64,000 nucleotides of DNA from Candidatus Bathyarchaeota archaeon (GCA_018396405.1 JAGTQD010000002.1:4316-68315), one strand, 5' to 3'. Positions 1 to 41,323 are shown, numbered from the stretch's first letter. Notes: generated by a model from the sequence alone, not told the origin. A program made the numbers and translations.

Positions 1-1353
1 TAAGCGCATTAATCTCTTTGATGCGCTTTCAAGGAACTCTAATGTTTCAATATTCTCAACATCGCCTATATGTTGTGATAGGAAAGCCTTATCGCCCACT
101 ATTAAACACGCGGTATTATTTTTCTCGCCTCCTAAGCCAAGCGCGCCCCATTTAGCCTTAAACTTTAGTCTGACTGGCTCAGGCGCGTATCCCCTCGACC
201 GTCTAATGAAGACAGTTTTACTCCCATGTAGGCGTAGAACGGAATCATCGCACCTATTAGCTATCCGCCTATCATGAAGCAAGAAGTAGTCTACTAGGCC
301 GCGTAATTTCTTAAAGGCTTCCTCCTCATCCTTAATTATTGGCTGGTTTGGTGGGTTAGCGCTCGTCATAACGAAGGCTGGATCTGAGACACCATCGAAG
401 AGCATGTAATGTAGCCCAGTATATGGAAGCATTACTCCAACATTATGTAGGCCTGGTGAAACCAGGTCAGATAGATAATAGTTTTCGCTCTTCTCTAATA
501 GAACTATTGGGCGCATTGGGGAGGTTAATACCATTTCCTCCCATCGGCTAACATTAGCGAATGTTTTTACCGCCTCTAAACTCCTGGCCATTATTGCAAA
601 TGGTTTCTGCCTCCTATGTTTCGCCATCCTGAGCCTTTGGAGCGGCTCATCTAAGAGAGTTGAGGCGGCTATGTGGAAACCTCCGTAACCCTTCACTGCA
701 ACAATATGGCCCTCTGAGACAATTCTCCCAGCCTCCCTAATCGGATCCTTGTGATTAACCATTTTACCGTCAGAGTCCACTAAATATGCCTTTGGACCAC
801 ATTTTGGGCACGCAACGGTCTGAGCGTGGAACCTCCTATTAATTGGATCTATATATTCGGATCTACAAAAATTGCACATCGGGAAGTCGCGCATCGTGGT
901 ATTCTCTCTATCGTATGGAACATCCTCTATTATAGTATATCTTGGCCCACAGTTTACGCATGTTATGAAGAAATAATTGTATCTTGGGTTTGTGGGATCA
1001 CGCATCTCGGCGAGACATTCGTCACATATGGCTATGTCTGGCGGTATAACCGAACCAGATAATTCTGTCTCCTCGGTGCTTTTGTATATTTGAAAGTCCT
1101 CGTAATATTCTTTAGATCCCTCGATCGGCGCAGTTATAACTCCATGTATTCTGGCCAACGGAGGCTTTTTCTCAACAAGGTCTCTTAAAAAGTTCTTTAT
1201 GTCCTGATCCGTGCCATCAACAATTATTTCTACGCATGAATCCCCTCTATTTCTAACGTATCCCCTCAAATGGTTCTTAACAGCAATCCTATATACAAAT
1301 GGGCGGAAACCAACCCCTTGAACTACACCCGTAACAATTATTTTTAAACGCAT
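1..1353 (-). CDS. hypF: [NiFe]-hydrogenase maturation carbamoyltransferase HypF, N-terminal ~451 codons (gene runs off the left window edge)
   Basis: The minus frame is open from position 1 to the ATG at 1351-1353; it is absent from the ORF track because it has no stop in the window. Hand translation gives MRLKIIVTGVVQGVGFRPFVYRIAVKNHLRG (acylphosphatase domain), then PDIAICDECLAEMRDPTNPRYNYFFITCVNCGPRYTII (HypF zinc-finger motifs). Confidence 0.9.
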   Translation of the reverse strand, partial: MRLKIIVTGVVQGVGFRPFVYRIAVKNHLRGYVRNRGDSCVEIIVDGTDQDIKNFLRDLVEKKPPLARIHGVITAPIEGSKEYYEDFQIYKSTEETELSGSVIPPDIAICDECLAEMRDPTNPRYNYFFITCVNCGPRYTIIEDVPYDRENTTMRDFPMCNFCRSEYIDPINRRFHAQTVACPKCGPKAYLVDSDGKMVNHKDPIREAGRIVSEGHIVAVKGYGGFHIAASTLLDEPLQRLRMAKHRRQKPFAIMARSLEAVKTFANVSRWEEMVLTSPMRPIVLLEKSENYYLSDLVSPGLHNVGVMLPYTGLHYMLFDGVSDPAFVMTSANPPNQPIIKDEEEAFKKLRGLVDYFLLHDRRIANRCDDSVLRLHGSKTVFIRRSRGYAPEPVRLKFKAKWGALGLGGEKNNTACLIVGDKAFLSQHIGDVENIETLEFLESASKRLMRL

Positions 1354-1417: not shown

Positions 1418-2296
1418 CTAAACCCTTTCCAAAATTTTTGTGGGCTTTACTCGCAACTCCTCAAAGCCCAAGTCTTCTGGCTGCATGCCCATGGCTAGGC
1501 CGAGGAGCTGAGTATAATGCAATACTGGGATGTCATACTTCTCGCCGAACATCTTCTCAACCCGCAACTGATTAGCATCATACATTATGTGACAGGCTGG
1601 GCAAACTGTTATTAATGCATCTGCGCCAGCCTCCTTAACATGGAGGAGCTTTTCTCTGACAAGAGAGAGTGAGATTTTATCATCTATAGCAGCTATAGTC
1701 GAGCCGCAGCATTCGGTCTCACCAGCATACTCAATCGGCTTTGCCCCAGTTATACTGATGAGCATTTTTAAAGCCCTCGGGTTCTCAGGATCCTCAAAAC
1801 CAATATACTTCTTTGGTCTCGATAGATGGCATCCACTATGCCCAGCAACCCTAAGGCCCCTCAGCGGCCTAACAATCGTCTTCTTAATATTGTCGAGACC
1901 AACATCCTCTATCAGAATCTGAGAGATGTGCTTAACTTCTATATTCCCCTTAAACTCTAAGCCGTCCTCCTTCAAATGCCTATTAATTTCCTCCCTAAGC
2001 ACCTTATTCTCTTTAAGTATCTTGCCAGTCTTTTTCAGCGTACCAGCACATCCAGGGCATAGGGTTAAAATGTTTAGGCCAACCTTTTCTGCTATGGCAA
2101 GATTTCTTGCAGACAGAGTGAGCATCAGCTCGTGGCTTAGAGGCTCTAGCGGAAGACCACAGCAATTAAATTCTGGCATCTCAACTAATTCCACGCCTAG
2201 CTTATCTAAGACTTTCCTCGCAGAGATCTCGTAGGAAGAGACTCTGTAAGGAATAGCGCAGCCCAGATAAATCAAGTATTTCTGACTCATACCCAT
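1418..2296 (-). CDS. Heterodisulfide reductase subunit B-like protein (two CCG domains), copy 1
   Basis: Two complete CCG-domain cysteine patterns: GCAIP..EFNCCGLP..CPGC and SGCHL..ECCGST..CPAC. The likely start is ATG 2290, overlapping the upstream stop (ATGA). Confidence 0.8.
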   Translation of the reverse strand: MGMSQKYLIYLGCAIPYRVSSYEISARKVLDKLGVELVEMPEFNCCGLPLEPLSHELMLTLSARNLAIAEKVGLNILTLCPGCAGTLKKTGKILKENKVLREEINRHLKEDGLEFKGNIEVKHISQILIEDVGLDNIKKTIVRPLRGLRVAGHSGCHLSRPKKYIGFEDPENPRALKMLISITGAKPIEYAGETECCGSTIAAIDDKISLSLVREKLLHVKEAGADALITVCPACHIMYDANQLRVEKMFGEKYDIPVLHYTQLLGLAMGMQPEDLGFEELRVKPTKILERV

Positions 2297-2844
2297 ACTT
2301 TAGCCTCCCCACCCTTCTTGGGTTCTCCTCCAAGGAACTTTTCAACACCTATATTCCGGAGGATCTTATTTAGGCCCTCAATGTTGACTTTCGGTAGCGG
2401 CGGAAGGCCGAGGGCCTCACGCCTTTTAATCCTTGATTCAGGAATCTCGTAGATGTAGCCAGTTTTAACAAGGGTTCCTAGGAGAACTCTATATACTTCT
2501 GGTATTCGCCCCTCCATTACAGCCATATTCTTTAATACTCTTATCACGCTTGCAACCTCAACTCCCTGGGGGCACCTATCAGTACACGTGAAACATGATG
2601 CACAGAGCCAGAGGAAATCGCTACTTAAAACCTTCTCTCTCAGCCCCAGCTGAGCCATCCTAATAATTTTTCTAGGCCTATATTTATCACTAAACCTTGC
2701 AATTGGGCAATCTGATGTACACGTCCCACATTGGAAGCATTGTAGAAGCTTCTCTCCACCCGGCATCTTAGTGACTTCATATCTAAACTTTGGATCTATC
2801 TTGGAATATGCAGATACGCTTTCTTCCCCGACTGCCTTGGACAA
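2287..2844 (-). CDS. Heterodisulfide reductase subunit C-like 2x[4Fe-4S] protein
   Basis: 185 aa with two ferredoxin-type motifs, CFQCGTCTSDCP and CASCFTCTDRCP. It sits directly upstream of, and overlaps, an HdrB-like gene. Confidence 0.75.
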   Translation of the reverse strand: MSKAVGEESVSAYSKIDPKFRYEVTKMPGGEKLLQCFQCGTCTSDCPIARFSDKYRPRKIIRMAQLGLREKVLSSDFLWLCASCFTCTDRCPQGVEVASVIRVLKNMAVMEGRIPEVYRVLLGTLVKTGYIYEIPESRIKRREALGLPPLPKVNIEGLNKILRNIGVEKFLGGEPKKGGEAKVWV

Positions 2845-2920
2845 TTTTTATCCTCCTACATGAACCTTTTAATTATTTTAATAAAGAAAAGGGGGATAAA
2901 AATGTGCCTATCTCAGCATG

Positions 2921-3817
2921 CTAAGGTCTTCTAGCCCTCTCTGAGAGATTTGTGAGGAGTATCTTTGCCCTCTTTATATTCTCTATTTTTCTCCTACAGT
3001 TTGGGCATATCCTCATCGAATTATAGATGTTATCATGATAATCCTTGTATATTGGAACCTTCTCCTCAACCACACGCTTTAACGCCCACTCTATCTGCTT
3101 CTCTGGGAAGAATGTTCCACCGCATATAGTGCATGAGAGTAAATTGACCTCATTCTCAACCCTAGCTGCCCGTGGGTCGCTTGTCAGCAGATGGTATACT
3201 CCTGTAAGCCTTATTGCCTGAGTGGGACATTCGTCTTGACAGAAGGCGCAGAATGTGCAGTGTCCATAATTAACTCTTATGATCCTCTTCTCCGGCCCAT
3301 CAATAACTTCTATCGCATCGGCGGTGCATATTTGGGCGCAGGCACCACATCCAATACATTTCTCTCCATCAATCTCATGTCTGCCACGAAAGCCCTCAGG
3401 CGTTTTCCAGAATTCCTCCTTCTCCTCGATCTTCACGCCAAGTATGTCGGCTATAGCTTTAATAATTGCTTGTGGGCGGGGCGGGCACCCAGGAATATAA
3501 TAATTGACTGGAATAAGTTTATTCGGCGGGCCGATAATCGGGTAGCCCTTATCGAAGATGTTTTTGGTGATTGAACAGTTCCCTACGGCAACAACTATTT
3601 TTGGCGGATTTATCTTCTCATAAACCTCTAATAGAGCTTTCTCACCCTTGATTGTTCCGGCGCCAGTTAAGATTAAGACATTTGCCTTTTCTGGCTCCTC
3701 GACAACCTCGACACCAAGATTAGCAAGTCCATAGCGTGGGACAAGACATTCTAAAATCTCTACATCACAAGCGTTACATCCAGCCGAGAGGAAACGATAA
3801 ACGGAAATTTTAGCCAT
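2921..3817 (-). CDS. [NiFe] hydrogenase small subunit (NuoB-like, group-4 type) fused to a 2x[4Fe-4S] NuoI-like domain and a C-terminal CxxC..CxxC motif
   Basis: The N-terminal ~135 aa carry GCNACDVE, GNCS and IPGCPPRP (proximal-cluster ligands of short NuoB-type small subunits). These are followed by CIGCGACAQIC and CTFCAFCQDECP, then CTICGG..x37..CPNCRRK. Confidence 0.8.
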   Translation of the reverse strand: MAKISVYRFLSAGCNACDVEILECLVPRYGLANLGVEVVEEPEKANVLILTGAGTIKGEKALLEVYEKINPPKIVVAVGNCSITKNIFDKGYPIIGPPNKLIPVNYYIPGCPPRPQAIIKAIADILGVKIEEKEEFWKTPEGFRGRHEIDGEKCIGCGACAQICTADAIEVIDGPEKRIIRVNYGHCTFCAFCQDECPTQAIRLTGVYHLLTSDPRAARVENEVNLLSCTICGGTFFPEKQIEWALKRVVEEKVPIYKDYHDNIYNSMRICPNCRRKIENIKRAKILLTNLSERARRP

Positions 3818-3833
3818 ACAAAATCACCTCCAA

Positions 3834-4970
3834 TTATCTTAGGGCAATAATCCTCCTCTTCCCGGTCCTGACATCAACAACCGTCACGCGGTCGGTGCAG
3901 GCGAAGCATGGATCAATACTCTCTATCACAGTCCTCGCATTTCCGAGTCTCTCGCCCTTAAGCATCTCAAGTATAGCAAAGTTATTAGCGTATGAAGGTG
4001 TCCTCACCTTGACTCTCTCTGGAATATTTGTTCCATTGGACCTAATATAATAGATTAGTTCTCCACGCGGGGCCTCCACCCTACCAACCTCCTCGCCAAC
4101 TTTAGGCTCACCTGGCTTGACAGATATATCTCCGGGCGGTAGATTGTCAAGTGCCTGCTCAATAATTTTCATGCTCTCATATGTCTCTCTAGCCCTAACA
4201 AGGGCTTTAGCGTGGACATCACCATCCTTCTCAACTATTACCTCGAAGTCAAGCTTATCATAGGCTGCGTATGGATCATCCTTCCTTATATCGCTGGCTA
4301 CCCCAGAACCCCTTAAGGTTGGGCCCACTGCGCCGACTTCTATAGCTTTGTCTCTCGGCAATACTCCCACGCCCTTAGTCTTCTTTGTGAAGACTCCGTT
4401 GTCATCTAATAGTGACATTATGTAGTCTGAGAGAGGCTTAAGAGTCCTCAAAACCCCACGTATTTTCTCAGCCTTCTCTGGCGTAATATCTCTGCGAACC
4501 CCGCCGATAGTATTTATTGCATAGTTAATCCTATTTCCAGTCAGATACTCAAATAAGTCCTGTATTATTTCTCTCTCACCCATTATCTTTGCAAAGGCTT
4601 CATGCTCATGTAAGCTGTGAGCTAGTATGCCAAACCATAGATAGTGGCTGTGTAGGCGCTCGAGCTCCATATATATGCATCGGAGATACTTTGCCCTCTC
4701 AGGAACCTCCACACCCATCAATCTCTCAACTGTCTGAGCATAGCACAGCGTGTGTATCCCGCTACATATTCCACATATCCTCTCCGCCAAGGCAAGGTTC
4801 TGCATGTATGTCCTCGTAGTAAACAGCTTCTCTATACCCCTATGCATATAACCGAGTTCCATCTTAGCATCAATTATCTTATCACCCTCAACGAGAAGCT
4901 CAAAGCGCTCCGGCTCAACTAGCTGCGGGCGGTATGGTCCTATATAAACTTTCTCCGGCATCCAGATCAC
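3834..4970 (-). CDS. [NiFe] hydrogenase large (catalytic) subunit, group-4 / NuoD-like
   Basis: N-terminal metal-site motif RICGICSGIH and C-terminal DPCFACTDR, followed by a 17-aa tail (VTVVDVRTGKRRIIALR). The 378-aa length fits Ech/Mbh-type subunits. The start is GTG 4970 (overlapping the upstream stop) or ATG 4961. Confidence 0.9.
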   Translation of the reverse strand: MIWMPEKVYIGPYRPQLVEPERFELLVEGDKIIDAKMELGYMHRGIEKLFTTRTYMQNLALAERICGICSGIHTLCYAQTVERLMGVEVPERAKYLRCIYMELERLHSHYLWFGILAHSLHEHEAFAKIMGEREIIQDLFEYLTGNRINYAINTIGGVRRDITPEKAEKIRGVLRTLKPLSDYIMSLLDDNGVFTKKTKGVGVLPRDKAIEVGAVGPTLRGSGVASDIRKDDPYAAYDKLDFEVIVEKDGDVHAKALVRARETYESMKIIEQALDNLPPGDISVKPGEPKVGEEVGRVEAPRGELIYYIRSNGTNIPERVKVRTPSYANNFAILEMLKGERLGNARTVIESIDPCFACTDRVTVVDVRTGKRRIIALR

Positions 4971-5839
4971 ACCCCCAATTTCTTAACTAATTGTTGAACA
5001 GGACTCCTATGGAGCTCTATGAGCAACTCTTTGGACGGGACTCCAAACGATAGGGCGAGTAGCTCCATAAGATTTATGCATGGAATATTGAACTGGATTC
5101 CATATGGCCTTAACATTACCTGACCAAGCTCGAACTGTATCATGCATGCTGGGCATGCCATGACCACGGCATCTACCCCCGCGCTGTTGATCCTGCTTAG
5201 CTTCCTGGCTAATCTCTCCTTAAGTGAGAATTCCTCGCTGGCTTGCATGCTTGGGTAGCCGCAGCACATCCGCTCAAGACCATAATCTATTACTTGTGCT
5301 CCAGTCCGCTCAACAATTTCTCTCATCATTTTAGGTTTACGCATTATATCCGCACTCTTATATTCACGGTAAAGGTGGCAACCATAGTGTAATGCGACAC
5401 GAATCTTCTGGGGCTTAACCACTAACTTCTCAATATTGCCTAAACCTACATCTTCATAGAGAACCTCGATCACATGTTTAATATCGATTTTACCCTTATA
5501 TTCCCTTCCATACCTCTTCAAAATATTGTTGACCTTGTCCCTCTTTTCGGCATCATGCTTTAAGATCTCATTTGCCTCGGCTAAGGTTTCATAGCAACCG
5601 TTGCACAGTGTCATCATATTTATGCCTAAGTCCTCCGCTAAAGTAATATTTCTCGCGGATATTACTAGTGCAGCCTCCTCATCTATTAGGCGGGATACCA
5701 CTGGTTCTGGACAGCATGAATAGCCGAGTAATTCAACCGTCTCCACACCAAGCCTCTCAAAAACCTTCCTTGCGGCTACTTCGACATTTGGTAGACGCAT
5801 CGGGATCTGGCATCCAAGGAAGAAGGCATATTTAACCAT
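4967..5839 (-). CDS. Heterodisulfide reductase subunit B-like protein (two CCG domains), copy 2
   Basis: Patterns LGCQIP..YSCCPEP..CNGC and YGCHL..RMCCGYP..CPAC. The gene lies between the NuoC-like and large-subunit genes. Confidence 0.8.
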   Translation of the reverse strand: MVKYAFFLGCQIPMRLPNVEVAARKVFERLGVETVELLGYSCCPEPVVSRLIDEEAALVISARNITLAEDLGINMMTLCNGCYETLAEANEILKHDAEKRDKVNNILKRYGREYKGKIDIKHVIEVLYEDVGLGNIEKLVVKPQKIRVALHYGCHLYREYKSADIMRKPKMMREIVERTGAQVIDYGLERMCCGYPSMQASEEFSLKERLARKLSRINSAGVDAVVMACPACMIQFELGQVMLRPYGIQFNIPCINLMELLALSFGVPSKELLIELHRSPVQQLVKKLGV

Positions 5840-5856
5840 ATCATTCCACCTCCAAA

Positions 5857-6540
5857 CTACTTATACCTAAGCTTCTTTTTCTCCCAATCAAAGCCAGCTC
5901 TTTCACCCATGCCAGACAACTTTATGATACCGTGATACTCGCTTAAGGCCTTCTCATCCGTGAAGGGGAATGGGGCGGATTTTGGTAGACCAGCTTCTTC
6001 ACGTTTCTTCTGGACAAAAGCCGATATAGGCGCCACGCAACCACTCGCCATCAAGGCTTCGGCAACCGGCCTAGCCTTCGATGGTAACACTCCCTCAAAA
6101 GGCTTCTTTAGCGGCCTCTTATCTTCAGGCCAATCTTTAGTCAATATTAGGCCAGCGGGCTCAGGCTCCGGGTGATTGACTAATCTGATACCAAAGAGGT
6201 CTGAGATCTCCCTCTCAATGAAGTTCGCTGCTGGAACAAGGTCAGCTATGGATTCGAGTATTGGATTCTCTTTAGGCCTTATAGTTCTGATCGTTAAGAC
6301 GATACCGTCAATGTGGAAATGATATAAGTATTCTATGTCTAAGCCAGCATCAACAGCGGAGAGCGTCATGAAACGCATATCTCCATATTTGTTCTTTAGG
6401 GCTTCAATAGCCCTTCTAACGGCTTCTGACTTAACATTAGCGAATATTCTCCTCTCACGCTGCCTATAAACCTCTATTAAGTCAGCTCCAAGAATACTCT
6501 TTAAGTAATTCATTATCTCGGACTCGATAGGCGAAGCCAT
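5857..6540 (-). CDS. NuoC / 30-kDa-subunit-like hydrogenase component (EchD/MbhK-type)
   Basis: 227 aa with the NuoC-type signature FIEREISDLFGI and no Cys clusters. It lies within the hydrogenase operon. Confidence 0.7.
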   Translation of the reverse strand: MASPIESEIMNYLKSILGADLIEVYRQRERRIFANVKSEAVRRAIEALKNKYGDMRFMTLSAVDAGLDIEYLYHFHIDGIVLTIRTIRPKENPILESIADLVPAANFIEREISDLFGIRLVNHPEPEPAGLILTKDWPEDKRPLKKPFEGVLPSKARPVAEALMASGCVAPISAFVQKKREEAGLPKSAPFPFTDEKALSEYHGIIKLSGMGERAGFDWEKKKLRYK

Positions 6541-6544
6541 AACA

Positions 6545-7030
6545 CTATACCCCCAAATAGCGTTTTCTATTAAATTCCCAAGCCTCTTTCCTCAACGCAA
6601 CCCTAATGGCTTGCGGAGAGCAGAATTTAGCGCACTTCGGGTCGCCATCACAGAAATCGCATTTTACTGCAACACGCCGCTCAGCATTGAACCATGGGGC
6701 TGAGAGCGGGCAAGTAACTGTACATGTCTTGCAGCCAATGCATCTTATCGGGTTTATTTTAACTAAGCCTGTTATCTCATCTTTTACAGCTGCCTCGTTC
6801 GGGCACGCGGCAACGCAAAGAGGCTCATCGCAATGATGGCAGTATATCGCCTCAAACTCACCAGTCTTATCATCGAATATTATATGGAGGTTAGCCTTTT
6901 CTAAGCCGATCTCCTTGAAGTGCTGGTAAGAACACGCAATCTGGCAGAAGAGGCAGCCAGTACACCTTGTTGGATCATATAGAAGAACCTTTTGCTCAGC
7001 CGTGTTGGTTTTCATGGTCTTTTCCCTCAA
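6545..7030 (-). CDS. Four-cluster [4Fe-4S] ferredoxin (HycB/DmsB-type electron-transfer subunit)
   Basis: Four cluster motifs: CTGCLFCQIAC, CHHCDEPLCVAACP, CIGCKTCTVTCP and CDFCDGDPKCAKFC. It is the first gene of the operon. Confidence 0.8.
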   Translation of the reverse strand: MREKTMKTNTAEQKVLLYDPTRCTGCLFCQIACSYQHFKEIGLEKANLHIIFDDKTGEFEAIYCHHCDEPLCVAACPNEAAVKDEITGLVKINPIRCIGCKTCTVTCPLSAPWFNAERRVAVKCDFCDGDPKCAKFCSPQAIRVALRKEAWEFNRKRYLGV

Positions 7031-7129
7031 ATTTAAATTACATATAATTTAAGTTTGAAGTATTTTAGATTTTCCTTAAGATTGGAAATAGTTAACCTTT
7101 TAATCACTACGTTCATAAAGATTTTGTTG

Positions 7130-7645
7130 ATGTCAATTGAGAGTGAGCTTAAATCTTGGCTGAGTGGTTATCAAAGACTTGTTATTCTCGGGGTCGGCAA
7201 CCCCCTTAGAGGAGATGATTCTCTAGGATTAGCAATCTTAAGAAGAATAAGGGGGAGGCTCCCAAGAAATACTAAAGTAATATATGGTGGCGTAGCTCCT
7301 GAAAATTTTATCGGTAAAATAAGGATGCTTAAGCCATCACATGTTCTCATAATCGACGCAGCCCTCTTCGGCGGAAAACCTGGTGAGGCTAGGCTTATCC
7401 TGCCTGAGCAAATATCTGACATGACCATATCTACACATACCATACCACTCAGCTTACTGGCCTGGCTAATTCAGAGGGAGACTGATGCGAAGATCGCTCT
7501 GCTGGGAATAGAACCAAAAAATCTCGGCTTAGAGGAGGGGGTTAGTCAGGAGGTTAGGGAGGCTATTGATAGGTGTGCCAAGATGTTGATAAACGTAATA
7601 AATGAGTGCTGGAAGAATTCACGTAGCCTAGCCAAAGCGAATTAG
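7130..7645 (+). CDS. hycI: Hydrogenase maturation endopeptidase (HycI/HyaD family)
   Basis: GVGNPLRGDDSLG motif near the N-terminus. I prefer ATG 7130 (MSIESELKSW...) over the TTG at 7055 used by the ORF track. The gene is divergent from the hydrogenase operon. Confidence 0.85.
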   Translation: MSIESELKSWLSGYQRLVILGVGNPLRGDDSLGLAILRRIRGRLPRNTKVIYGGVAPENFIGKIRMLKPSHVLIIDAALFGGKPGEARLILPEQISDMTISTHTIPLSLLAWLIQRETDAKIALLGIEPKNLGLEEGVSQEVREAIDRCAKMLINVINECWKNSRSLAKAN

Positions 7646-8419
7646 CTCGGCTAGGCTCGGTATATAAACGAAAAAGCACACATAAAGGGAGAGAACAAGT
7701 ATTATAATGGAGATTGAGATGAAAAGATAATCTTTCACGCCCATTTTAAGCGTATATAGGTTTGTGCGCTTTTTCGATGCGCCCCAAGCCCTAGACTCCA
7801 TAGCCTCAGCAAGCTCCATGCTCCTCCTTATAGCGCTAACTATGAGGGGTATTAAGATTGGTATATAATTTCTAATCCTCTTTATAAAGTTCCCCCGCTC
7901 AAGCTCTAATCCACGCGCCTTCTGCGCATCCATAATTGACTGCGCTTCCTCAGCCAAAACTGGAACAAATCTTATCGCAGTTATAAATGCAAAGCAGAAT
8001 TCATAGGGCACACCCATCTGTTCGAGAGATAGGCTGAGCATATCCGGCGATGTTGTAGCGAAAAATATTGAGAAGGATTCGACTAGAATTATAAATCTAA
8101 GCGTCATAGCCACTGAACGCTCTATAATTGATAGTAGGGATGGATAACCGCCATAGAAGTAGAGTGATATCATATTTGTGATGAATATCAGCGCTGCAAA
8201 GAACATTGTGCCCCTCATTAAACGTAGCCACTCTCTCTTAACCTTGGCCATTATAACTAATGGAATCTGAGAAAAGAATAATATTAATAATGGTATCAGC
8301 TGACTGAATAATACTGCTATAGCGAATAATATGCATACGTAGATGAATTTGGCCCTTGGATCAATCCTATGTATGGGCGAGGAAATATTTCTGAATCTTA
8401 AACCTTCAAATACGCTCAT
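7628..8419 (-). CDS. ecfT: ECF transporter transmembrane (T) component, EcfT/CbiQ family
   Basis: 263-aa polytopic membrane protein with the coupling motif DAQKARGLELERG. It is immediately downstream of two ECF-type ATPase domains, with a 4-nt overlap. Confidence 0.8.
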   Translation of the reverse strand: MSVFEGLRFRNISSPIHRIDPRAKFIYVCILFAIAVLFSQLIPLLILFFSQIPLVIMAKVKREWLRLMRGTMFFAALIFITNMISLYFYGGYPSLLSIIERSVAMTLRFIILVESFSIFFATTSPDMLSLSLEQMGVPYEFCFAFITAIRFVPVLAEEAQSIMDAQKARGLELERGNFIKRIRNYIPILIPLIVSAIRRSMELAEAMESRAWGASKKRTNLYTLKMGVKDYLFISISIIILVLSLYVCFFVYIPSLAELIRFG

Positions 8420-9144
8420 TTGCCAGCCCTACCGCGAAGATATTCTAGAATAAGGCGTTTAGCCTCGTATACGCCTAAAACCTTTCTTGGAAAACCGAAG
8501 TCATTAAGTCTTATGAATACTTGGGTTATCTCTGGCGGCATTAAAGACGCCTCCTTCACCAAAGTCGGATCAGTGAGCACTTCCCTAGCCTCCCCATCAG
8601 CGATTATCCTGCCATTAGCCATCAAAATAACCCTTGGCTCACACTCGGCAACAAACTCTATATCATGAGTCACAACTATCACAGTTTTACCCTGCTGGTT
8701 TAACTGGATTATAAAGTGTCGGAGCCTTTCCTTCTGATATGCATCCTGCCCTATCGTCGGCTCGTCGAGTATTAGTATTTTTGGATCCCACGCTAGAACA
8801 GAGGCCAAAGCAACCCTCTTCCTCTCCCCGCCGCTGAGCATGAATGGCGAAGTTTTACGATAACGTGTTAAATCTAATAGATTGAGCGCCCAATCAACCC
8901 TCTCTTTAATAGTCTTTTCACTAAATCCAAAGTTTCTTAATGCGAAAGCAATCTCTTCTTCAACTGTCTCGCTGAAGAGCTGATGATCCGGATTTTGGAA
9001 TACAAAGCCCACTTTCCTAGCGAGCTCGGCGACACTAGCGTTCCTCGTATCAACCCCATCCACTAGAACCCTTCCCCTGGTAGGCCTTAATAAACCAATA
9101 AAATGTTTAACTAATGTTGTTTTTCCAGCCCCATTTTGTCCCAT
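8416..9144 (-). CDS. ecfA: ECF transporter ATPase (second ATPase domain); the true 5' end is upstream of the listed Met
   Basis: The track ORF starts inside the Walker A motif (MGQNGAGKTT). The same frame stays open up to 9261 and encodes LIRAEDVYFIYPNGVEALRGVSLSISDGEFVAI, the missing ABC N-terminus, with no ATG/GTG/TTG. Also present: LSGGERKRV signature and ILILDEPT Walker B. Confidence 0.8.
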   Translation of the reverse strand: MGQNGAGKTTLVKHFIGLLRPTRGRVLVDGVDTRNASVAELARKVGFVFQNPDHQLFSETVEEEIAFALRNFGFSEKTIKERVDWALNLLDLTRYRKTSPFMLSGGERKRVALASVLAWDPKILILDEPTIGQDAYQKERLRHFIIQLNQQGKTVIVVTHDIEFVAECEPRVILMANGRIIADGEAREVLTDPTLVKEASLMPPEITQVFIRLNDFGFPRKVLGVYEAKRLILEYLRGRAGK

Positions 9145-9229
9145 TATCGCAACGAATTCCCCATCTGAGATGCTGAGAGAGACGCCTCTTAGGGCCTCAA
9201 CGCCGTTAGGGTATATAAAATAGACATCT

Positions 9230-10084
9230 TCAGCTCTTATCAGATTTAAGCACCCCCACGATCAGGTCAGAGAGCTCTTCTGGGCTTAATGGAGTCCTGC
9301 CAAGATCAACATTATCTTCCCTCAATAAAAGATAGAGCCTAACAACTTTTGGCAATCCAACACCGATTAATTTAACCCTAGCGTCAAGAAAGACCTCTCT
9401 GGGACTGTTATCTAAAATTATGCGGCCCTGATCCATAATAATGACGCGATTAGCGTATCTCACGGCTAAATCCAGCCTATGCTCAACAAGTATAACCGTT
9501 ATTCCCAGCTCCCTATTTAACTGATATATACTTTCTAAGATACTCTTGGCGCTTAGTGGATCAAGAAAAGATGTTGGCTCATCCAGAACAATTATCTCGG
9601 GCTGCATTGCAAGAACCGACGCTATAGCAACACGCTGTTGTTGTCCACCAGAGAGCTCGAAGGGGGCTCTATCCTTCAAATCATATATGCCAGTAACCCT
9701 TAATGCCCAATCAACCCTCCTGTGAATCTCCTCTCTAGGGAGACCGAGATTCTCTAGCCCGAAGGCCACATCCTTCTCTACCGTGAGAGCAAACAGCTGG
9801 TTCTCCGGGTTCTGGAAGACTAATCCAACATGTTTTGCCAGCTCATAAATAGGGTGCTCCCGCGTATTTAATCCAGCGACTATCACATCACCCTCAAGAT
9901 TACCGCCATAAAAATGTGGTATAAGTCCATTAAAGCACCTGCAAAGCGTGGTTTTTCCACATCCACTTGGGCCAGTAATTATGACAAACTCTCCTTTCTC
10001 AATGGTTAGGTTTATATCTTTAATAGCAGGGTTCTCAGCGAAGGGATATGTATACGTCAGGTTTCTCGTTTCAAGTATTGCCAA
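9230..10084 (-). CDS. ecfA: ECF transporter ATPase (first ATPase domain)
   Basis: GPSGCGKTT Walker A, LSGGQQQRVAIA signature and IIVLDEPTSFLD Walker B. 284 aa. Confidence 0.85.
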   Translation of the reverse strand: MAILETRNLTYTYPFAENPAIKDINLTIEKGEFVIITGPSGCGKTTLCRCFNGLIPHFYGGNLEGDVIVAGLNTREHPIYELAKHVGLVFQNPENQLFALTVEKDVAFGLENLGLPREEIHRRVDWALRVTGIYDLKDRAPFELSGGQQQRVAIASVLAMQPEIIVLDEPTSFLDPLSAKSILESIYQLNRELGITVILVEHRLDLAVRYANRVIIMDQGRIILDNSPREVFLDARVKLIGVGLPKVVRLYLLLREDNVDLGRTPLSPEELSDLIVGVLKSDKS

Positions 10085-10227
10085 GGTATAGTTACACCTT
10101 AACTACCCCTACCTTTACTTAAAGTCATATGAAGAACATAGTAATTAAGCTTCTTACATAAATCTCTAAATTATTTATATGTTGAAAGCGGCGGAAACAA
10201 TTTTAAATTCTTCATAGCATATAGTTG

Positions 10228-11229
10228 ATGGTCATCCCTTTGAGGATTAAATGGAAGAATGGACTATCCATAGAATATAAAGGAAATAGAGTAGTCTTCG
10301 ATGCGCAATCTAGGATACTAAATTGTAAAGTCTCATTTGTAACTCATGCACACACAGACCATTCATACTCCTTCAGACTTAATCATATACCAGTAATCTC
10401 CTCCGAGGAAACTATGAGGTTAATCTCAATAGAAGGAGCTAAGACAAGAAAATGGCAACCATTAACAGTGAATGAAAAAGTTAAGATCGGCGACTTAGAG
10501 GTGATACCGCATCCATCCGGCCATATCCTCGGCTCATATGAATTTGAGGTATGCACACCTCATGGGGTAGTTCTATTCACGGGTGATCTTAATACTAGGG
10601 AGGGAAGAATTGTGAAGCCAGCTGAACCAATAAGATGTGATGTGCTGATTATAGAGGCGACATACGGATCTCCAGAATTCATATTTCCATCAGATAGAGA
10701 GGTTGGTGATGAGATGATTAGATGGGCATACAAGGTTTTAGGCGAAAATAAGATTCCAGTATTTCAGGCAGATGCCATTGGAAATTCCCAGGAAATCATA
10801 AGAATTTTTAACGAGAACACAAATATGCCGGTTATATCACATTGGAGGGTTTCAAAAGTCAATAAGGTTTACGAACATTATGGTCATAAAATAAAGTATA
10901 TTGATATTAACTCGGGGGAAGCTTCCGAGGTAATCTCCTCAGCAAACACCGTGATTGTATCTCCAAAGAAGCTGGACTTGCCTTCTAATCATAGGTTTGT
11001 TTCGGCGATAGTTTCAGGGTGGGCCCTTAAATTTAGGGGTGCAGCCTTCCCCCTAAGCGATCACGCAGACTTCCCCAGCCTACTAAATTTCATCAGAGAT
11101 TGCAGCCCAAAAATAGTCTTAACATATCATGGCGGCGCATTCAATGAAATCCTGGCAAAATACATTGAGAAGAAAATGGGGATAAAATCTTACCCAGCTA
11201 ATCTTACACCAATAACCTTCCCAATTTAA
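10228..11229 (+). CDS. Beta-CASP family metallo-beta-lactamase-fold nuclease (function unassigned)
   Basis: HAHTDH (HxHxDH), SGHILGS, FTGD, IIEATYG (motif A), LSDHAD (motif B) and TYHGG (motif C). An ATG at 10228 directly follows the TTG at 10225. Confidence 0.7.
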   Translation: MVIPLRIKWKNGLSIEYKGNRVVFDAQSRILNCKVSFVTHAHTDHSYSFRLNHIPVISSEETMRLISIEGAKTRKWQPLTVNEKVKIGDLEVIPHPSGHILGSYEFEVCTPHGVVLFTGDLNTREGRIVKPAEPIRCDVLIIEATYGSPEFIFPSDREVGDEMIRWAYKVLGENKIPVFQADAIGNSQEIIRIFNENTNMPVISHWRVSKVNKVYEHYGHKIKYIDINSGEASEVISSANTVIVSPKKLDLPSNHRFVSAIVSGWALKFRGAAFPLSDHADFPSLLNFIRDCSPKIVLTYHGGAFNEILAKYIEKKMGIKSYPANLTPITFPI

Positions 11230-11253
11230 AGGCAAAAAATTATAATCTAGGCT

Positions 11254-12270
11254 TTATTGGCGCTGGCAGCCTTTTAGCTTCTCCTTAAGTATTTTAATGG
11301 CATATTTAAAGGCTGTTTCAAGGTCTCCGGTTCCATTAACCCCCGCAGACGTTGTATGCCCGCCGCCCATGCCATGAAGAAGCTCGCCGAGCGGCTTCGC
11401 TATATCTCTGCCAAGATGTATACCAGTTTTATTATAGAATTCATTGCTAGATCTCATGCTAATCAATAACTCACCCTTATCCTCTGAGCCAACGATGGCG
11501 ACATCCGCGCCAACATCAACAAGCATCCTTGCAGCCGAAGCCTGAAAGGATCCAACATGGGAGAAGGCTATGATCCAACCATAAATCCTCATCGTTTTCA
11601 TCCTTTTACATGCCTTAAGCCTAGCTATGCGCTCCGAAATATCCATTGGCACCATCAAGATTTGTAGTGCTTCTTGAACGTTTACTCCCAATTCCACGAT
11701 CTCCGTGATTACTTTAAAAGTGGATGATCTAGCTAAGAGAAAATGCCTAGTGTCGAAAGCTATCCCTAAGAGCAGAGCCTCAGCTACATCCTTTGAGGGT
11801 TTACTTCCAGCCTCTTTAAATAGATCATAAATTATCTCGGATGTAGCCGAAACATCCTCTCTGCATATACATAGAGACGCTATCTTCTCAGTTTCTGGGT
11901 GAGGCGCGTGATGATCGATCACAATTAGGGGTAGCGATAACTCGCATATACGTTTACCCCACTCACCCAGCTGGCGTATGGTATTAGTATCTAACATAAA
12001 GATTACATCAAATTTATTAAAGTCAGGCTCACTGTTAGTAACGTCCACCAAGAATCTTTCTAAAATAGCCTTTGAAACCTTACTCACACTTTCTGGCGCG
12101 GCTATCGTGACCTCTATGCTTGGCTTAAACTGTTTCAGTAAGTTAGAGAGGGCATACGACGAGCATACAGCATCGGGGTCAGCGTTCTTGTGACATAGAA
12201 TGAGAATGCGCCCCGCATTTCTCTCCTCAAGGATATTCATTATCTCTCTAAAAAAGTCCATTTGCCTCAT
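11254..12270 (-). CDS. DHH/DHHA1 family phosphoesterase (NrnA/RecJ-like)
   Basis: Motifs HKNADPDAVCSS, FMLDT, VIDHHAPH and GGGHTTSAG. Confidence 0.8.
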   Translation of the reverse strand: MRQMDFFREIMNILEERNAGRILILCHKNADPDAVCSSYALSNLLKQFKPSIEVTIAAPESVSKVSKAILERFLVDVTNSEPDFNKFDVIFMLDTNTIRQLGEWGKRICELSLPLIVIDHHAPHPETEKIASLCICREDVSATSEIIYDLFKEAGSKPSKDVAEALLLGIAFDTRHFLLARSSTFKVITEIVELGVNVQEALQILMVPMDISERIARLKACKRMKTMRIYGWIIAFSHVGSFQASAARMLVDVGADVAIVGSEDKGELLISMRSSNEFYNKTGIHLGRDIAKPLGELLHGMGGGHTTSAGVNGTGDLETAFKYAIKILKEKLKGCQRQ

Positions 12271-12273
12271 TCC

Positions 12274-12594
12274 CTAATTCTCTGAGGTTTTCTCAGACCT
12301 AATCTTACTAAGATACTTTTCAATGGCCTCAAATGCCGCCTTTATAGAGCCATTCGCAATCTCCTGAACATCAACATTCTTGCAGAGGGGAGAAAGATTT
12401 ATCTCGACTTCGATGCTAACGTTTAAGACATCAAGACTCTCTAAATCAATAGAAATATATAGGTCTGAAACATACTCCCTCTTAACCTTAGAAAATATAT
12501 ATCTTCTTGCAGCCTCCTCAGCTACCTCACAAATCTCCTCCAGCTTTTCATAAGTTAAAGAGGAAATCGGCAGCCCGTCCAAGCATGGCACCAC
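12274..12594 (-). CDS. Small conserved-looking archaeal protein of unknown function (possibly DUF3194-like)
   Basis: 106-aa acidic ORF packed between the prefoldin beta gene and the DHH phosphoesterase gene. No motif recognised; the family guess rests on size and neighbourhood only. Confidence 0.35.
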   Translation of the reverse strand: MVPCLDGLPISSLTYEKLEEICEVAEEAARRYIFSKVKREYVSDLYISIDLESLDVLNVSIEVEINLSPLCKNVDVQEIANGSIKAAFEAIEKYLSKIRSEKTSEN

Positions 12595-12608
12595 GGTTAG
12601 CGTGAGGT

Positions 12609-12971
12609 TTAGGCTTGCGTCATTGGGCGCAGGTCTTTCTGGAGTTTTTCCTGAAGCTCCTTTATTTGGCTTCTAAGTCTCTCCTCCTGCTTAGTTAAAA
12701 CTGAAACCCTCATCGTAGCAAGCTCTTTCCTCTCAGTAAGCTCGCTAGTAATTCTAGCCTTATCCGTCTTAATTAACAATGAGCCAATAGACTTATAGAT
12801 CACAGCGTCATCAGGTGCTTTCTCAAGCTCACTAAGCGCCCTATCAATCTCAAGAATTTCTAGATCTAGCTGCTGCTTCTGCGTTAAAATTGTTTGCAAT
12901 GTCTCCTGTAGCTGTTGTAGTCTGAGGAGTCTCTCTTGGACAGCTGGCGGTAATTGGACTTCACCACTCAT
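12609..12971 (-). CDS. pfdB: Prefoldin beta subunit
   Basis: 120 aa with two heptad coiled-coil arms flanking a central beta-hairpin region (VIYKSIGSLLIKTDK). Confidence 0.8.
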   Translation of the reverse strand: MSGEVQLPPAVQERLLRLQQLQETLQTILTQKQQLDLEILEIDRALSELEKAPDDAVIYKSIGSLLIKTDKARITSELTERKELATMRVSVLTKQEERLRSQIKELQEKLQKDLRPMTQA

Positions 12972-13051
12972 CTTCTATCACCACTACAATCTAAATAATC
13001 CAATTTAATATTTGAGTTGATGCAATTAAAGGTTTCCAAAAGGGCATTAAC

Positions 13052-14407: not shown

Positions 14408-14421
14408 TTAATAATTAACCT

Positions 14422-14820: not shown

Positions 14821-15023
14821 ATTAATAACATCCTCTTAACACCAAAAAATACTTAGCGTTTCATCACCTCTCACGTTTCCAAAAAATAAAGAGGGGTGGG
14901 TAACATTAATATACTCTTTTAATGAAAGTTTATTTTTGGCCGGATGAAGAGAAGGCATTTAATTGATTGATGATAGGTCAGAGTTAAACTGACGGCAAAT
15001 AAATTTTGATTTCACCACGCAGT

Positions 15024-18935: not shown

Positions 18936-19073
18936 GCCGATCCCTCATCATCCTAATATTGTTCCCAAAATCCCAACATTAATACGATCTTCCTCATAAA
19001 ACTTTCCCTTTCCCCATTTTTCAATTAAGTTTATCTAGCCTCATGCTTTGAAATCTTCTAATTAGGGGTCATT

Positions 19074-41296: not shown

Positions 41297-41323
41297 CGCT
41301 AAAACCCTTGGAGCTGATTTTTG

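Follow-up and report, generated by a model that had tools for sequence, protein, structure and literature searches.

Can a group 4 [NiFe] hydrogenase encoded with HdrB- and HdrC-like proteins, and beside no membrane subunit, work in the cytoplasm, and what would it then reduce? This question is raised by a cluster in a hot-spring Bathyarchaeia genome, which we examined within a stretch of 64,000 nucleotides (64 kb; hereafter the window). Open reading frames (ORFs) and Pfam and NCBIfam assignments define seven co-oriented genes, all on the minus strand and spanning 1418-7015, in the order four-cluster ferredoxin, NuoC-like subunit, HdrB1, [NiFe] large subunit, NuoB::NuoI, HdrC and HdrB2. The features are as follows:

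7055-7645, plus strand: divergent HycI-type maturation endopeptidase (TIGR00142, 133 bits against a cut-off of 119)
6545-7015, minus strand: four-cluster ferredoxin subunit of the HycB/HydN/DmsB type, 156 aa from ATG 7015
5857-6540, minus strand: NuoC-like subunit (Complex1_30kDa) with an HdrC C-terminal tail, hereafter NuoC'
4967-5839, minus strand: HdrB1, two CCG domains (PF02754 twice; TIGR03288, 285 bits)
3834-4961, minus strand: group 4 [NiFe] large subunit, 375 aa (Complex1_49kDa and NiFeSe_Hases)
2921-3817, minus strand: NuoB::NuoI fusion (Oxidored_q6 and 2x[4Fe-4S])
2845-2920, minus strand: intergenic gap of 76 nt, with T-runs and then an A/T-rich stretch (direct reading of the sequence)
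2287-2844, minus strand: complete HdrC, 2x[4Fe-4S] and its own C-terminal tail (TIGR03290, 2.4e-34)
1418-2296, minus strand: HdrB2, two CCG domains (PF02754 twice; TIGR03288, 292 bits)
1-1353, minus strand: N-terminal 451 codons of hypF, an open translation that continues beyond the window edge

All seven minus-strand ORFs listed in a preliminary description of this DNA are present where it placed them, its subunit inventory agrees with the Pfam and NCBIfam assignments, and the flanks that it named, hypF and the maturation protease HycI, are borne out. The HypF translation has an acylphosphatase start and four CxxC motifs, hypC and hypD come after hypF outside the window according to the annotation of an identical contig (L001), and gene callers start hycI at 7082 or 7130. 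The ferredoxin ORF (6545-7030) reaches TTG 7030, and ATG 7015 is the more likely start. Two gene overlaps had been described: that between hdrC and hdrB2 (2287-2296) is real; the other (4967-4970) probably is not, because gene callers start the large subunit at ATG 4961, with a GGGGG ribosome-binding site upstream, and the closest 120 large-subunit homologues among the matches listed are all 373-381 aa long. The T-runs and A/T-rich stretch in the 76-nt gap between nuoB::nuoI and hdrC are a possible terminator and promoter junction, and there may therefore be two transcription units; the same position is the 3' end of a five-gene core in the relatives L007, L008, L090-L093 and L171. The arrangement recurs on 17 contigs of this species from independent sources, as well as in several other species, and thus reflects neither chance nor an assembly artefact. 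Purifying selection is strong on all seven genes (dN 0.04-0.31, dS saturated, dN/dS ≤0.12 wherever computable).

The large subunit matches Complex1_49kDa (7.5e-70) as well as NiFeSe_Hases and contains both RICGICSGIH and DPCFACTDR, the latter followed by a 17-residue C-terminal tail; its L1 and L2 cysteines are invariant in 23 homologues. Its assignment to group 4 holds, since the best solved relatives are MbhL (9.5e-78) and HycE (9.7e-73) and hydrogenases of groups 1-3 align over the N-terminal ~95 residues only. The NuoB::NuoI fusion carries Oxidored_q6 at residues 14-124 and Fer4 at residues 148-204, and the HycF family NF009053 matches residues 140-291. It thus comprises a proximal [4Fe-4S] cluster, a HycF-like 2x[4Fe-4S] domain and a Cys-rich C-terminal extension, with all cluster cysteines invariant in six orthologues; the extension (residues 220-290) has a counterpart only in Ehd-type NuoI. 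The ferredoxin subunit (Fer4_11, 1.3e-13) has 16 Cys in four CxxCxxCxxxC-like groups, and its gene stands first in the cluster in all window-type and Ehd-type relatives. The predicted catalytic core is therefore complete, with a large subunit, a NuoB-type proximal cluster, a NuoI-type cluster pair, and its own HycI and hypFCD.

No transmembrane segment was predicted in the seven products by a hydropathy scan used in place of TMHMM (Kyte-Doolittle, 19-residue windows, threshold 1.6); the maximum of 1.54, against 2.83 for the neighbouring CbiQ, agrees with the earlier impression that none contains a hydrophobic helix. The statement that no membrane subunit is encoded in cis also stands: tblastn of the whole 64-kb window with queries from relatives returned no NuoH or antiporter homologue, nor any of HdrA or MvhD, and the remainder of the window is annotated as housekeeping genes. 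Transmembrane proteins adjoining the relatives' clusters are unrelated transporters (MFS, ZIP, YeeE, ECF).

Both HdrB proteins carry, as the preliminary description had it, two complete CCG cysteine patterns (C-X31-CC-X33-35-C-XX-C), which in HdrB1 comprise cysteines 10, 42, 43, 79, 82 and 154, 192, 193, 229, 232. HdrB1 matches methanogen HdrB (8rvu_b) over its full length (E=4.2e-77), and its gene invariably lies between nuoC' and the large-subunit gene; HdrB2 matches the same chain at 3.7e-72, and HdrC, with two CxxCxxCxxxCP motifs, matches 8rvu_c at 7e-33. A feature overlooked earlier is the HdrC-tail fusion on the NuoC-like subunit. Beyond the Complex1_30kDa domain (residues 35-149), the ~78 C-terminal residues (~150-227) are homologous to the C-terminal tail of HdrC: residues 160-225 match 118-183 of the HdrC chain 5odc_C (E=1.3e-4), a profile from 11 NuoC' orthologues matches HdrC 106-183 (E=6.8e-11), and BLASTP relates the tail to that of the window's own HdrC (E=0.004). 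This tail is likely to be a tether for HdrB1.

The relatives form a graded series, from an Ehd type with NuoH and an antiporter-like subunit through a Drh-like type with NuoH only to the window type with neither. The order in L088 and L012 is Fd-antiporter-NuoC'-HdrB-large subunit-NuoH-NuoI-NuoB, L089 has this order minus the antiporter, and in the window type NuoB::NuoI stands where these relatives have NuoH-NuoI-NuoB. The five-gene core without membrane genes was found at 16 non-redundant loci (about 14 Bathyarchaeia or unassigned, 3 Hadarchaeia-like); NuoH and antiporter are both absent from L007-L010, L090-L093, L170 and L171, and a four-gene form without the ferredoxin occurs in L011, L033 and L094. 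Conservation of gene order thus extends to five genes, not to the seven grouped earlier: the core recurs, but HdrC-HdrB2 is absent at most window-type loci, and the accessories vary (HdrC-HdrB2 in the window, HdrA-MvhD in one relative, TusA-YeeE-DsrEEH in another sublineage). More than 120 large-subunit clusters (90% identity) share at least 74% identity with the window copy, the named ones being nearly all Bathyarchaeia; in the remaining relatives, at 45-52% identity, NuoH directly follows the large subunit in almost all. In a neighbour-joining tree of the relatives, with no named reference sequence from HydDB, Drh or Ehd among them, the large subunits of the membrane-free type group as one clade (169/200 bootstraps; 200/200 for its Bathyarchaeia part), which joins the Ehd-type clade with weak support (52/200).

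The architecture had not been recognised as described; however, HdrB-linked group 4 hydrogenases have been published as Drh of Methanocella (Lyu & Lu 2015, as cited in PMC6046458), Ehd of Methanomethylicia (Borrel 2019, as cited in PMC9723716), and also as Ehe, Ehg and an 'Ehd-like' clade with Bathyarchaeia among its members (PMC9723716). All are known from genomics only, and hdrB has also been noted within 'fpo-like' operons of hot-spring Bathyarchaeia (PMC8407382). Drh of the Methanocellales ('disulfide-reducing hydrogenase' or Ech-Hdr-like complex) resembles the window type in its group 4 Ech-like core, the hdrB in its cluster and the lack of an antiporter. Direct H2:heterodisulfide reduction without ion pumping is already proposed for it, on genomic and transcriptomic evidence only (PMC6046458, PMC9723716). 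PMC6046458 also lists the M. conradii enzyme as drhB, C, D, E, F, G, H plus hdrB and calls it 'membrane-associated'; the presence of drhB implies, by Ech nomenclature, that Drh retains a NuoH-like B subunit. Compared with Drh as described, the window type lacks NuoH, has NuoB fused to NuoI and has HdrC-HdrB2 in addition; the Bathyarchaeia locus L089, with NuoH kept and no antiporter, looks like a Drh-grade intermediate. In the Ehd type the genes follow the same order (Fd, NuoC', HdrB, large subunit), NuoC likewise ends in an HdrC tail and NuoI is likewise extended; its loci L088 and L012, however, have NuoH and an antiporter-like subunit, for which ion pumping is proposed, and both are absent from the window type. 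Ehe (Culexarchaeia) and Ehg (Nezhaarchaeia) are likewise HdrB-associated group 4 enzymes, with exchangeable accessory modules (GcvH, HdrA, MvhD, FdhA); unlike the window type, they have an antiporter subunit and a membrane-bound form according to their descriptions (PMC9723716, PMC12700198). Similar modular variation is seen among the window's relatives (HdrA-MvhD in L170, GcvH in L171), and CdhA, SdhA and FdhA are all missing from the window cluster. Methanogen MvhAGD-HdrABC is also a soluble H2-dependent HdrBC system (HdrB 1e-72 to 1e-77, HdrC 7e-33), but its hydrogenase belongs to group 3c, the window holds no HdrA, MvhD or MvhG, and one window HdrB is putatively attached not by a full HdrC but through the NuoC::HdrC-tail chimera. 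The classical group 4 enzymes (formate hydrogenlyase, Mbh and Ech) have in common with the window type a NuoB-, C-, D- and I-like core, a HycI-type protease, a HycF-like NuoI and a HycB-like four-cluster adaptor ferredoxin; HdrB, however, is found in none of them, and each includes NuoH-like and antiporter-like subunits in the membrane. We found no description in the literature of a fully membrane-free, NuoB::NuoI-fused form; judged by its sequence, the cluster is a soluble variant of an already named kind of enzyme (Drh/Ehd), and this form of it is new.

We therefore read the cluster, with moderate confidence, as a cytoplasmic derivative of HdrB-associated (Drh/Ehd-type) group 4 [NiFe] hydrogenases that has lost the membrane arm; the enzyme is most likely a cytoplasmic H2:disulfide (or sulfane-sulfur) reductase. 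H2 would be oxidised at the NiFe site, and its electrons would run along the NuoB cluster and the NuoI pair until they reach the two non-cubane clusters of HdrB1, a subunit that the HdrC-like tail of NuoC' would keep attached to the complex; the step from NuoI to HdrB1 we infer from subunit neighbourhoods in complex I and Mbh. The substrate reduced by HdrB1 would be a disulfide or else a carrier of sulfane sulfur or persulfide, and no ion translocation would take place. In formate hydrogenlyase, HycB is the adaptor to a second redox module, and the HycB-like four-cluster ferredoxin may likewise connect a second, exchangeable module, here HdrC-HdrB2. The electron path from H2 to HdrB suggested earlier is thus a reasonable reading; the accompanying label 'non-bifurcating, no HdrA' is uncertain, for it fits the 64-kb window, which has neither HdrA nor MvhD, but not L170, where the same seven genes are followed by hdrA-mvhD.

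L170 also speaks for an unlikely alternative, that the cluster supplies the H2-oxidising module of a bifurcating HdrABC-type enzyme in which the group-4-derived hydrogenase replaces MvhAG; HdrC-HdrB2 would form its high-potential branch, while the bifurcating flavin and the reduction of ferredoxin would come from an HdrA (with MvhD) whose gene lies elsewhere. In this relative (58% large-subunit identity), the genes directly after Fd-NuoC'-HdrB-large subunit-NuoB::I-HdrC-HdrB encode HdrA, MvhD (FlpD), an FAD/FeS protein and another HdrA-like protein, an argument for bifurcation in at least some members. The window's HdrC (44% identity) and HdrB2 (40% identity) are orthologous to the L170 pair; HdrB2 scores 227 bits with the HdrB that precedes hdrA there, against 177 bits with HdrB1. 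MvhD-HdrA genes also lie 3-6 kb from the cluster in L171 and L008, and Ehg of Nezhaarchaeia is described with HdrA and MvhD (PMC9723716, PMC12700198). However, neither protein has a homologue in the window or beside the cluster in L009, L010 and L001-L004, the HdrC-HdrB2 pair is wholly dispensed with at most window-type loci, and the putative tether of HdrB1 to the hydrogenase core itself needs no HdrA.

Sulfur-relay genes beside the cluster in a sister sublineage were also overlooked earlier. They bear on the substrate, which might be protein-bound sulfane sulfur (TusA/DsrE persulfides) or a lipoyl disulfide (GcvH/LbpA-like) instead of an organic heterodisulfide, although we consider this improbable. 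On this reading, H2 would drive the reduction of sulfur compounds in the cytoplasm, following sHdr logic in the reductive direction; sHdr systems are characterised by two HdrBs together with a sulfur relay. In the sublineage with 74-75% large-subunit identity, the cluster is directly adjoined by genes for TusA, a YeeE-type sulfur transporter, two DsrE proteins and DsrH, downstream in L008 and upstream in L171 and L091, and this linkage has therefore outlived a rearrangement. Neither HdrB reaches the CoB-CoM equivalog cut-off of TIGR03288 (285 and 292 versus 345 bits), a GcvH-like gene lies 2 kb away in L171, and GcvH is encoded in the Ehe cluster of Culexarchaeia (PMC9723716). On the other hand, the association is confined to one sublineage, no homologue of TusA, DsrE, YeeE or GcvH was found in the 64-kb window, whose lipoate ligase (19-20 kb) is 12 kb off the cluster and may be housekeeping, and both HdrB1 and HdrB2 are very near methanogen HdrB (E about 1e-72 to 1e-77).

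To our knowledge, all characterised group 4 hydrogenases are membrane-bound, and the complex might still dock on NuoH/antiporter-like subunits encoded elsewhere (e.g. Fpo-like) and conserve energy as proposed for Ehd. Such docking seems very unlikely. Separate fpo-like operons are reported in 22/35 hot-spring Bathyarchaeia MAGs (PMC8407382), and in L011 a complete membrane-bound group 4 set is encoded 2 kb away from the soluble-type cluster, but that set has its own NuoB, C, D and I. Moreover, the nuoH slot of the sister forms, between the large subunit and nuoI, is deleted here and NuoB is fused to NuoI; the N-terminus of the fused NuoB domain is ~9-13 residues shorter than the free-standing NuoB of relatives; the soluble clade has other residues at eight positions whose conservation is 85-100% among 70 membrane-bound and 8 Ehd-type large subunits; and the membrane genes are absent at all 16 non-redundant window-type loci, from at least two archaeal classes.

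There is little to recommend a mainly H2-evolving role, with electrons from reduced ferredoxin entering via the four-cluster subunit and HdrB as an alternative acceptor or regulatory site: H2 evolution is the direction of most group 4 hydrogenases, including the nearest solved relatives (Mbh and FHL), and the cluster has a HycB-like ferredoxin subunit, but standard potentials would make H2 formation by thiol oxidation thermodynamically impossible, and no accessory subunit is more constant across the family as a whole than HdrB. The directionality of Ehe was left unresolved in PMC9723716, whereas Methanocella Drh is up-regulated in low-H2 syntrophic growth, a better fit with H2 uptake (PMC6046458).

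If the cluster does encode a cytoplasmic H2:disulfide or sulfane-sulfur reductase, the enzyme would be a thiol-regenerating or sulfur-reducing H2 sink and not an energy-converting complex.

All seven minus-strand open reading frames of the cluster (window positions 1418-7015) were found, and both Pfam and NCBIfam agree with the subunit inventory that the preliminary description had drawn up by eye. In gene order, followed by the two flanks, the features are:

Minus strand, start probably at ATG 7015: Fd, a four-cluster ferredoxin with 16 Cys (Pfam Fer4_11)
Minus strand: NuoC', a NuoC-like subunit (Pfam Complex1_30kDa)
Minus strand: HdrB1, full length with two CCG domains (methanogen HdrB match 4e-77; 285 bits against TIGR03288)
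Minus strand, start at ATG 4961: [NiFe] large subunit with RICGICSGIH and DPCFACTDR motifs and a 17-residue C-terminal tail (Complex1_49kDa and NiFeSe_Hases)
Minus strand, up to the gap at 2845-2920: NuoB::NuoI, a NuoB domain fused to a NuoI/HycF-like 2x[4Fe-4S] domain (Pfam, NCBIfam)
Minus strand: HdrC with two [4Fe-4S] clusters (Pfam/NCBIfam)
Minus strand: HdrB2, full length with two CCG motifs (methanogen HdrB match 4e-72; 292 bits against TIGR03288)
One flank: hypF, whose N-terminal 451 codons lie inside the window before the gene runs off it; hypC and hypD lie beyond the edge
Other flank: a HycI-type protease scoring over the TIGR00142 cut-off (NCBIfam)

Neither HdrB protein reaches the 345 bits set as the equivalog cut-off of TIGR03288, and specificity for CoM-S-S-CoB is therefore not assigned. 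The start of the large subunit is almost certainly the ATG at 4961, which gives 375 aa as in the homologues, so the overlap at 4967-4970 described previously is probably not real. The seven products contain the complete set of cysteine ligands expected for all clusters; the L1 and L2 motifs (RICGICSGIH and DPCFACTDR) are invariant among 23 homologues of the large subunit. In six orthologues of NuoB::NuoI, NuoB Cys 14, 17, 81 and 111 and the eight cysteines of the NuoI part are likewise invariant. The maturation features of group 4 are also present, namely the C-terminal tail of the large subunit, the HycI endopeptidase and the adjoining hypF/hypC/hypD. For all seven genes dN was 0.04-0.31 with dS saturated, and dN/dS did not exceed 0.12 where computable; they are under strong purifying selection. 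The conserved ligands and these ratios rule out a pseudogene or relic. The window, which derives from a Candidatus Bathyarchaeia MAG, is identical to contig JAWBUV010000004.1 of GCA_038840795.1, the same large subunit is present on 17 contigs (NCBI, ENA, JGI), and an assembly chimera is ruled out by the occurrence of the arrangement on 17 independent contigs.

A transmembrane segment was found in none of the seven products: in a 19-residue Kyte-Doolittle window, judged against the usual threshold, the top value was 1.54, compared with 2.83 for the neighbouring CbiQ. Searches of the 64-kb window by tblastn, with queries from relatives, gave no match to NuoH or antiporter-like subunits, and together with the hydropathy values this bears out the proposed lack of a membrane arm in cis. 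The same searches gave no match to HdrA or MvhD in the 64 kb, in agreement with the annotation, and none to GcvH, TusA, DsrE, DsrH or YeeE beyond the cluster's own HdrC/HdrB genes. The remaining window genes are housekeeping in nature (an ECF transporter module, TiaS, prefoldin, RNase P subunits, CDC48, radical-SAM enzymes, ABC transporters and lipoate-protein ligase). The ECF-type module (7628-10084; CbiQ/EcfT and two ABC ATPases) lies directly beside hycI and is kept in the related loci L009 and L010; it showed no S component for substrate binding, so that uptake of Ni or Co is no more than speculation. Four radical-SAM genes are clustered within 8 kb (39961-47540), one with a wyosine-formation domain and one encoding 562 aa.

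The assignment of the large subunit to group 4, also made in the preliminary description, is well founded: its best solved relatives are Pyrococcus furiosus MbhL (9.5e-78) and Escherichia coli HycE (9.7e-73), followed by NuoD-type proteins, whereas matches to group 1-3 large subunits are confined to the first ~95 residues (group 1 at ~1e-15), which argues against an affiliation with group 3c (Mvh). Subgroup placement within group 4 is based on PDB and NCBIfam similarity and on a neighbor-joining tree of 143 large subunits from unlabelled relatives. In this tree, the Bathyarchaeia window-type clade was recovered in 200 of 200 bootstraps, and a wider membrane-free clade, which adds Hadarchaeia-like sequences, one NC10 bacterial sequence and two further representatives, in 169 of 200. 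The soluble and Ehd-type clades are joined in the best tree, but in only 52 of 200 bootstraps. Eight alignment positions that are 85-100% conserved in 70 membrane-bound and eight Ehd-type large subunits are replaced in the soluble clade. These eight clade-specific substitutions, along with an N-terminus of the NuoB domain that is ~9-13 residues shorter, weakly suggest the loss of a NuoH interface.

Two subunits depart from the usual group 4 form. By homology, the NuoC-like subunit is a NuoC::HdrC-tail chimera, its residues ~150-227 being homologous to the C-terminal tail of HdrC. A phmmer search of the PDB with this tail hit 5odc_C (residues 118-183, E=1.3e-4), a profile of 11 NuoC' orthologues hit HdrC 106-183 (E=6.8e-11) and two more HdrC structures, and the window's own HdrC was matched by BLASTP (E=0.004). 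The ferredoxin domain of HdrC is missing from the tail, which contains a single Cys. In solved HdrABC structures the HdrC tail reportedly packs on HdrB, which makes the chimera a plausible tether for HdrB1; the HdrB1 gene always directly follows that of NuoC'. Second, NuoB and NuoI form one polypeptide, atypical for group 4. At the C-terminus of its NuoI part is a Cys-rich extension (residues ~220-290) that Ehd-type NuoI also has and ordinary group 4 NuoI lacks.

Relatives were collected from GTDB species representatives, metagenomes and contig look-ups; two scans yielded at least four and at least five close window-type loci, and all counts of such loci are lower bounds. The relatives (given L numbers here) form a graded series. 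Ehd-type loci, found in a Thermoprotei archaeon (L088) and in Asgardarchaeum (L012), carry NADHdh and Proton_antipo_M genes in the order Fd, antiporter-like, NuoC', HdrB, large subunit, NuoH, NuoI, NuoB. L089 (Bathyarchaeia) has this order minus the antiporter, with NuoH kept. The window type consists of Fd, NuoC', HdrB, large subunit and NuoB::NuoI with zero membrane genes, and occurs in the window and at least L007-L010, L090-L093, L170 and L171; every one of these loci with a taxon on record is from Bathyarchaeia. Additional contigs from the same species as the window are L001-L004. Among the matches listed, a four-gene form without Fd is present in the Hadarchaeia-like L011, L033 and L094. 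HdrB1 lies between nuoC' and the large-subunit gene in the window, L007-L012, L033, L088-L094, L170 and L171, and the nuoB::I fusion is present in the DNA of L008 and L091. Nearly all relatives at 45-52% identity have NuoH straight after the large subunit as well as NuoL/M/N-like genes. NuoH and antiporter are absent from all window-type loci among the matches listed, and the transmembrane neighbours of these clusters are unrelated transporters (MFS, ZIP, YeeE, ECF). Two 'NuoH-like' flags were false positives, Pfam identifying a YeeE sulfur transporter in L008 and an MFS transporter in L033, and a 5-TM neighbour in L094 is a ZIP transporter.

Several other loci were observed in these scans. 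In a Hadarchaeales MAG (L011:253-10759), a complete group 4 set of the membrane-bound type (NuoL, NuoB, NuoC, large subunit, NuoH, NuoI) is followed 2 kb further downstream by a soluble NuoC'-HdrB-LSU-NuoB::I set, and the two types thus coexist side by side. The bacterial member of the membrane-free clade, from an NC10 bacterium MAG (L014:7164-12753), has a 633-aa large subunit with a ~300-aa N-terminal extension. Its neighbours are a 407-aa protein with a four-cluster ferredoxin at its end and two proteins of 232 and 545 aa without a Pfam match; neither HdrB nor TM proteins were found in this interval. One Bathyarchaeia contig (L013) encodes at 10163-15216 a 333-aa group-4-like large subunit, a NuoI-like protein and an FrhB-CBS fusion with no NuoH nearby, and at its left end (1-748) the first genes (Fd, NuoC') of a cluster of the window type, beside hycI and hypFCD. 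A 'Methanomicrobia archaeon' contig (L087:1966-11727) contains a formate-hydrogenlyase-like group 4 cluster with two antiporter-like genes and NuoH and without HdrB, in which a molybdopterin enzyme directly precedes the same kind of four-cluster Fd.

Genes beside the core differ between loci, and the conserved unit is therefore five genes. Among the matches listed, HdrC-HdrB2 follows the core only in the window and its own sublineage (L001-L004, L009, L010) and in L170. Of the seven-gene operon proposed earlier, the core of five holds as a conserved unit, and HdrC-HdrB2 is a lineage-specific elaboration. The 3' limit of this core in the relatives coincides exactly with a 76-nt gap (2845-2920) between nuoB::I and hdrC, where T-runs (TTTTTATCCCCCTTTTCTTT) precede a TATA-like stretch rich in A/T; from these features, hdrC-hdrB2 may be a separate transcription unit. 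In L170 (10375-17146; 58% large-subunit identity), the same seven genes are directly followed by HdrA, MvhD(FlpD), an FAD/FeS protein and a second HdrA-like protein, and another group of MvhD and HdrA-like genes is located upstream in the opposite orientation. This locus favors the alternative of a wholly bifurcating complex, in which the hydrogenase works with an HdrA from another part of the genome; we regard this as unlikely for the window, where 64 kb contain neither HdrA nor MvhD. In a sublineage at 74-75% large-subunit identity, TusA, a YeeE-type sulfur transporter, DsrE, DsrE and DsrH adjoin the core, downstream in L008 (12231-14546) and upstream in L171 (2611-4941) and L091 (7-631), with GcvH-like, SfrB-like, MvhD and HdrA genes a few kb away; among the matches listed, sulfur carriers lie beside the cluster only in these three loci. 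The block suggests a link to a sulfur relay, absent from the window. The three loci likewise speak for a substrate other than an organic heterodisulfide, such as a lipoyl protein or the persulfide form of TusA or DsrE, again with a low probability for a window that has none of these carriers. Lipoate-protein ligase genes (Lip_prot_lig_C, LplA-B_cat) are present at 19000-20121, 12 kb from the cluster, and could be relevant if the HdrB substrate were a lipoyl protein, the window being without a GcvH-like gene. Both alternatives are compatible with the soluble architecture.

The architecture had initially been thought undescribed, and in this respect the preliminary description has to be corrected: HdrB-associated group 4 hydrogenases (Drh, Ehd, Ehe, Ehg, Ehd-like) have been published from genomics, and electron delivery from a group 4 hydrogenase to HdrB, which is the core of the idea, has been put forward before. 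Drh, a 'disulfide-reducing hydrogenase' of Ech-Hdr-like type in Methanocella, was called membrane-associated, and drhB-H and hdrB were up-regulated in syntrophic coculture (PMC6046458); it has no antiporter and may use H2 to reduce heterodisulfide without translocating ions (PMC9723716). The latter paper, citing Borrel et al. 2019, gives Ehd of Methanomethylicia as a proposed membrane-bound enzyme with HdrBC and antiporter. That paper adds Ehe (Culexarchaeia), Ehg (Nezhaarchaeia) and an 'Ehd-like' clade containing Bathyarchaeia sequences (PMC9723716; related, PMC12700198 and 10.1101/2022.08.18.504445), and hdrB was also noted inside 'fpo-like' operons of Tengchong hot-spring Bathyarchaeia (PMC8407382). 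In the full-text literature searched, we found no description of the form without NuoH, the NuoB::NuoI fusion or the NuoC::HdrC-tail chimera, which does not prove its absence elsewhere.

Compared with these systems, the window cluster shares an hdrB inside the hydrogenase cluster beside the large subunit with Drh, Ehd, Ehe and Ehg, but the window type lacks the NuoH of Drh (whose gene list includes drhB) and both the NuoH and the antiporter of Ehd, Ehe and Ehg. With classical group 4 enzymes it has in common the NuoB-, NuoC- and NuoI-like subunits, the L1/L2 motifs and HycI maturation, whereas their NuoH-like and Mrp/NuoL-like antiporter subunits are absent in cis. Like HdrABC, it possesses a two-CCG HdrB and an HdrC with two [4Fe-4S] clusters; the HdrA flavoprotein with its bifurcating FAD is absent from the 64-kb window, unlike L170 with HdrA and MvhD in cis. 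The sHdr-like sulfur-oxidising systems cluster two HdrB, two HdrC and HdrA with TusA/DsrE/LbpA carriers, in contrast to the two HdrB, one HdrC and one HdrC tail of the window, which has no HdrA, TusA, DsrE or GcvH/LbpA.

An H2:disulfide function of the cluster, as proposed in the preliminary description, is plausible, and the enzyme may be non-bifurcating. H2 would be oxidised at the NiFe site. From there electrons would reach the non-cubane clusters of HdrB1 by way of the NuoB cluster and then the NuoI pair; HdrB1, kept in place by the HdrC-like tail of NuoC', would reduce a disulfide or sulfane-sulfur substrate. In formate hydrogenlyase, HycB connects formate dehydrogenase; by analogy, and given the molybdopterin enzyme directly before the same Fd type in L087, the HycB-like Fd might link a second, exchangeable module, which in the window would be HdrC-HdrB2. 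The ~270 mV between H2 and heterodisulfide would not be stored as an ion gradient in an enzyme with no membrane arm. Supply of a membrane partner in trans is improbable, and a mainly H2-evolving enzyme seems equally doubtful. A bolder reading, tentative and given slightly less than even weight, is a previously unrecognised, wholly cytoplasmic group 4 subgroup in Bathyarchaeia and Hadarchaeia, possibly with an NC10 offshoot, which would have lost the complex-I-like membrane arm, fused NuoB with NuoI and docked HdrB through NuoC::HdrC-tail, serving as a plug-in H2 module for HdrC-HdrB, for HdrA-MvhD (bifurcation) or for a TusA/DsrE relay.

Textbooks present group 4 hydrogenases as relatives of respiratory complex I, and membrane attachment is treated as part of their definition. 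A clade conserved under purifying selection that has lost NuoH and the antiporter would show that the peripheral arm can function as a free-standing soluble enzyme, which keeps the NiFe site, fuses NuoB and NuoI and gains HdrB via the NuoC::HdrC-tail chimera. The series from Ehd (pumping) through Drh-like (anchored) to the window type (soluble) would be a natural example of modular loss. To our knowledge, none of Drh, Ehd, Ehe and Ehg has been purified, all being known from genomics; a conserved membrane-free clade with such fusions would be notable and experimentally attractive to the specialist, as a small object without a membrane part (five to seven subunits) on which biochemical or structural work on HdrB-linked group 4 hydrogenases could begin. 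Hot springs and anoxic sediments harbour abundant Bathyarchaeia, which as far as we know are without methyl-coenzyme M reductase, and the cluster has a bearing on the H2 and thiol or sulfur metabolism of these archaea.
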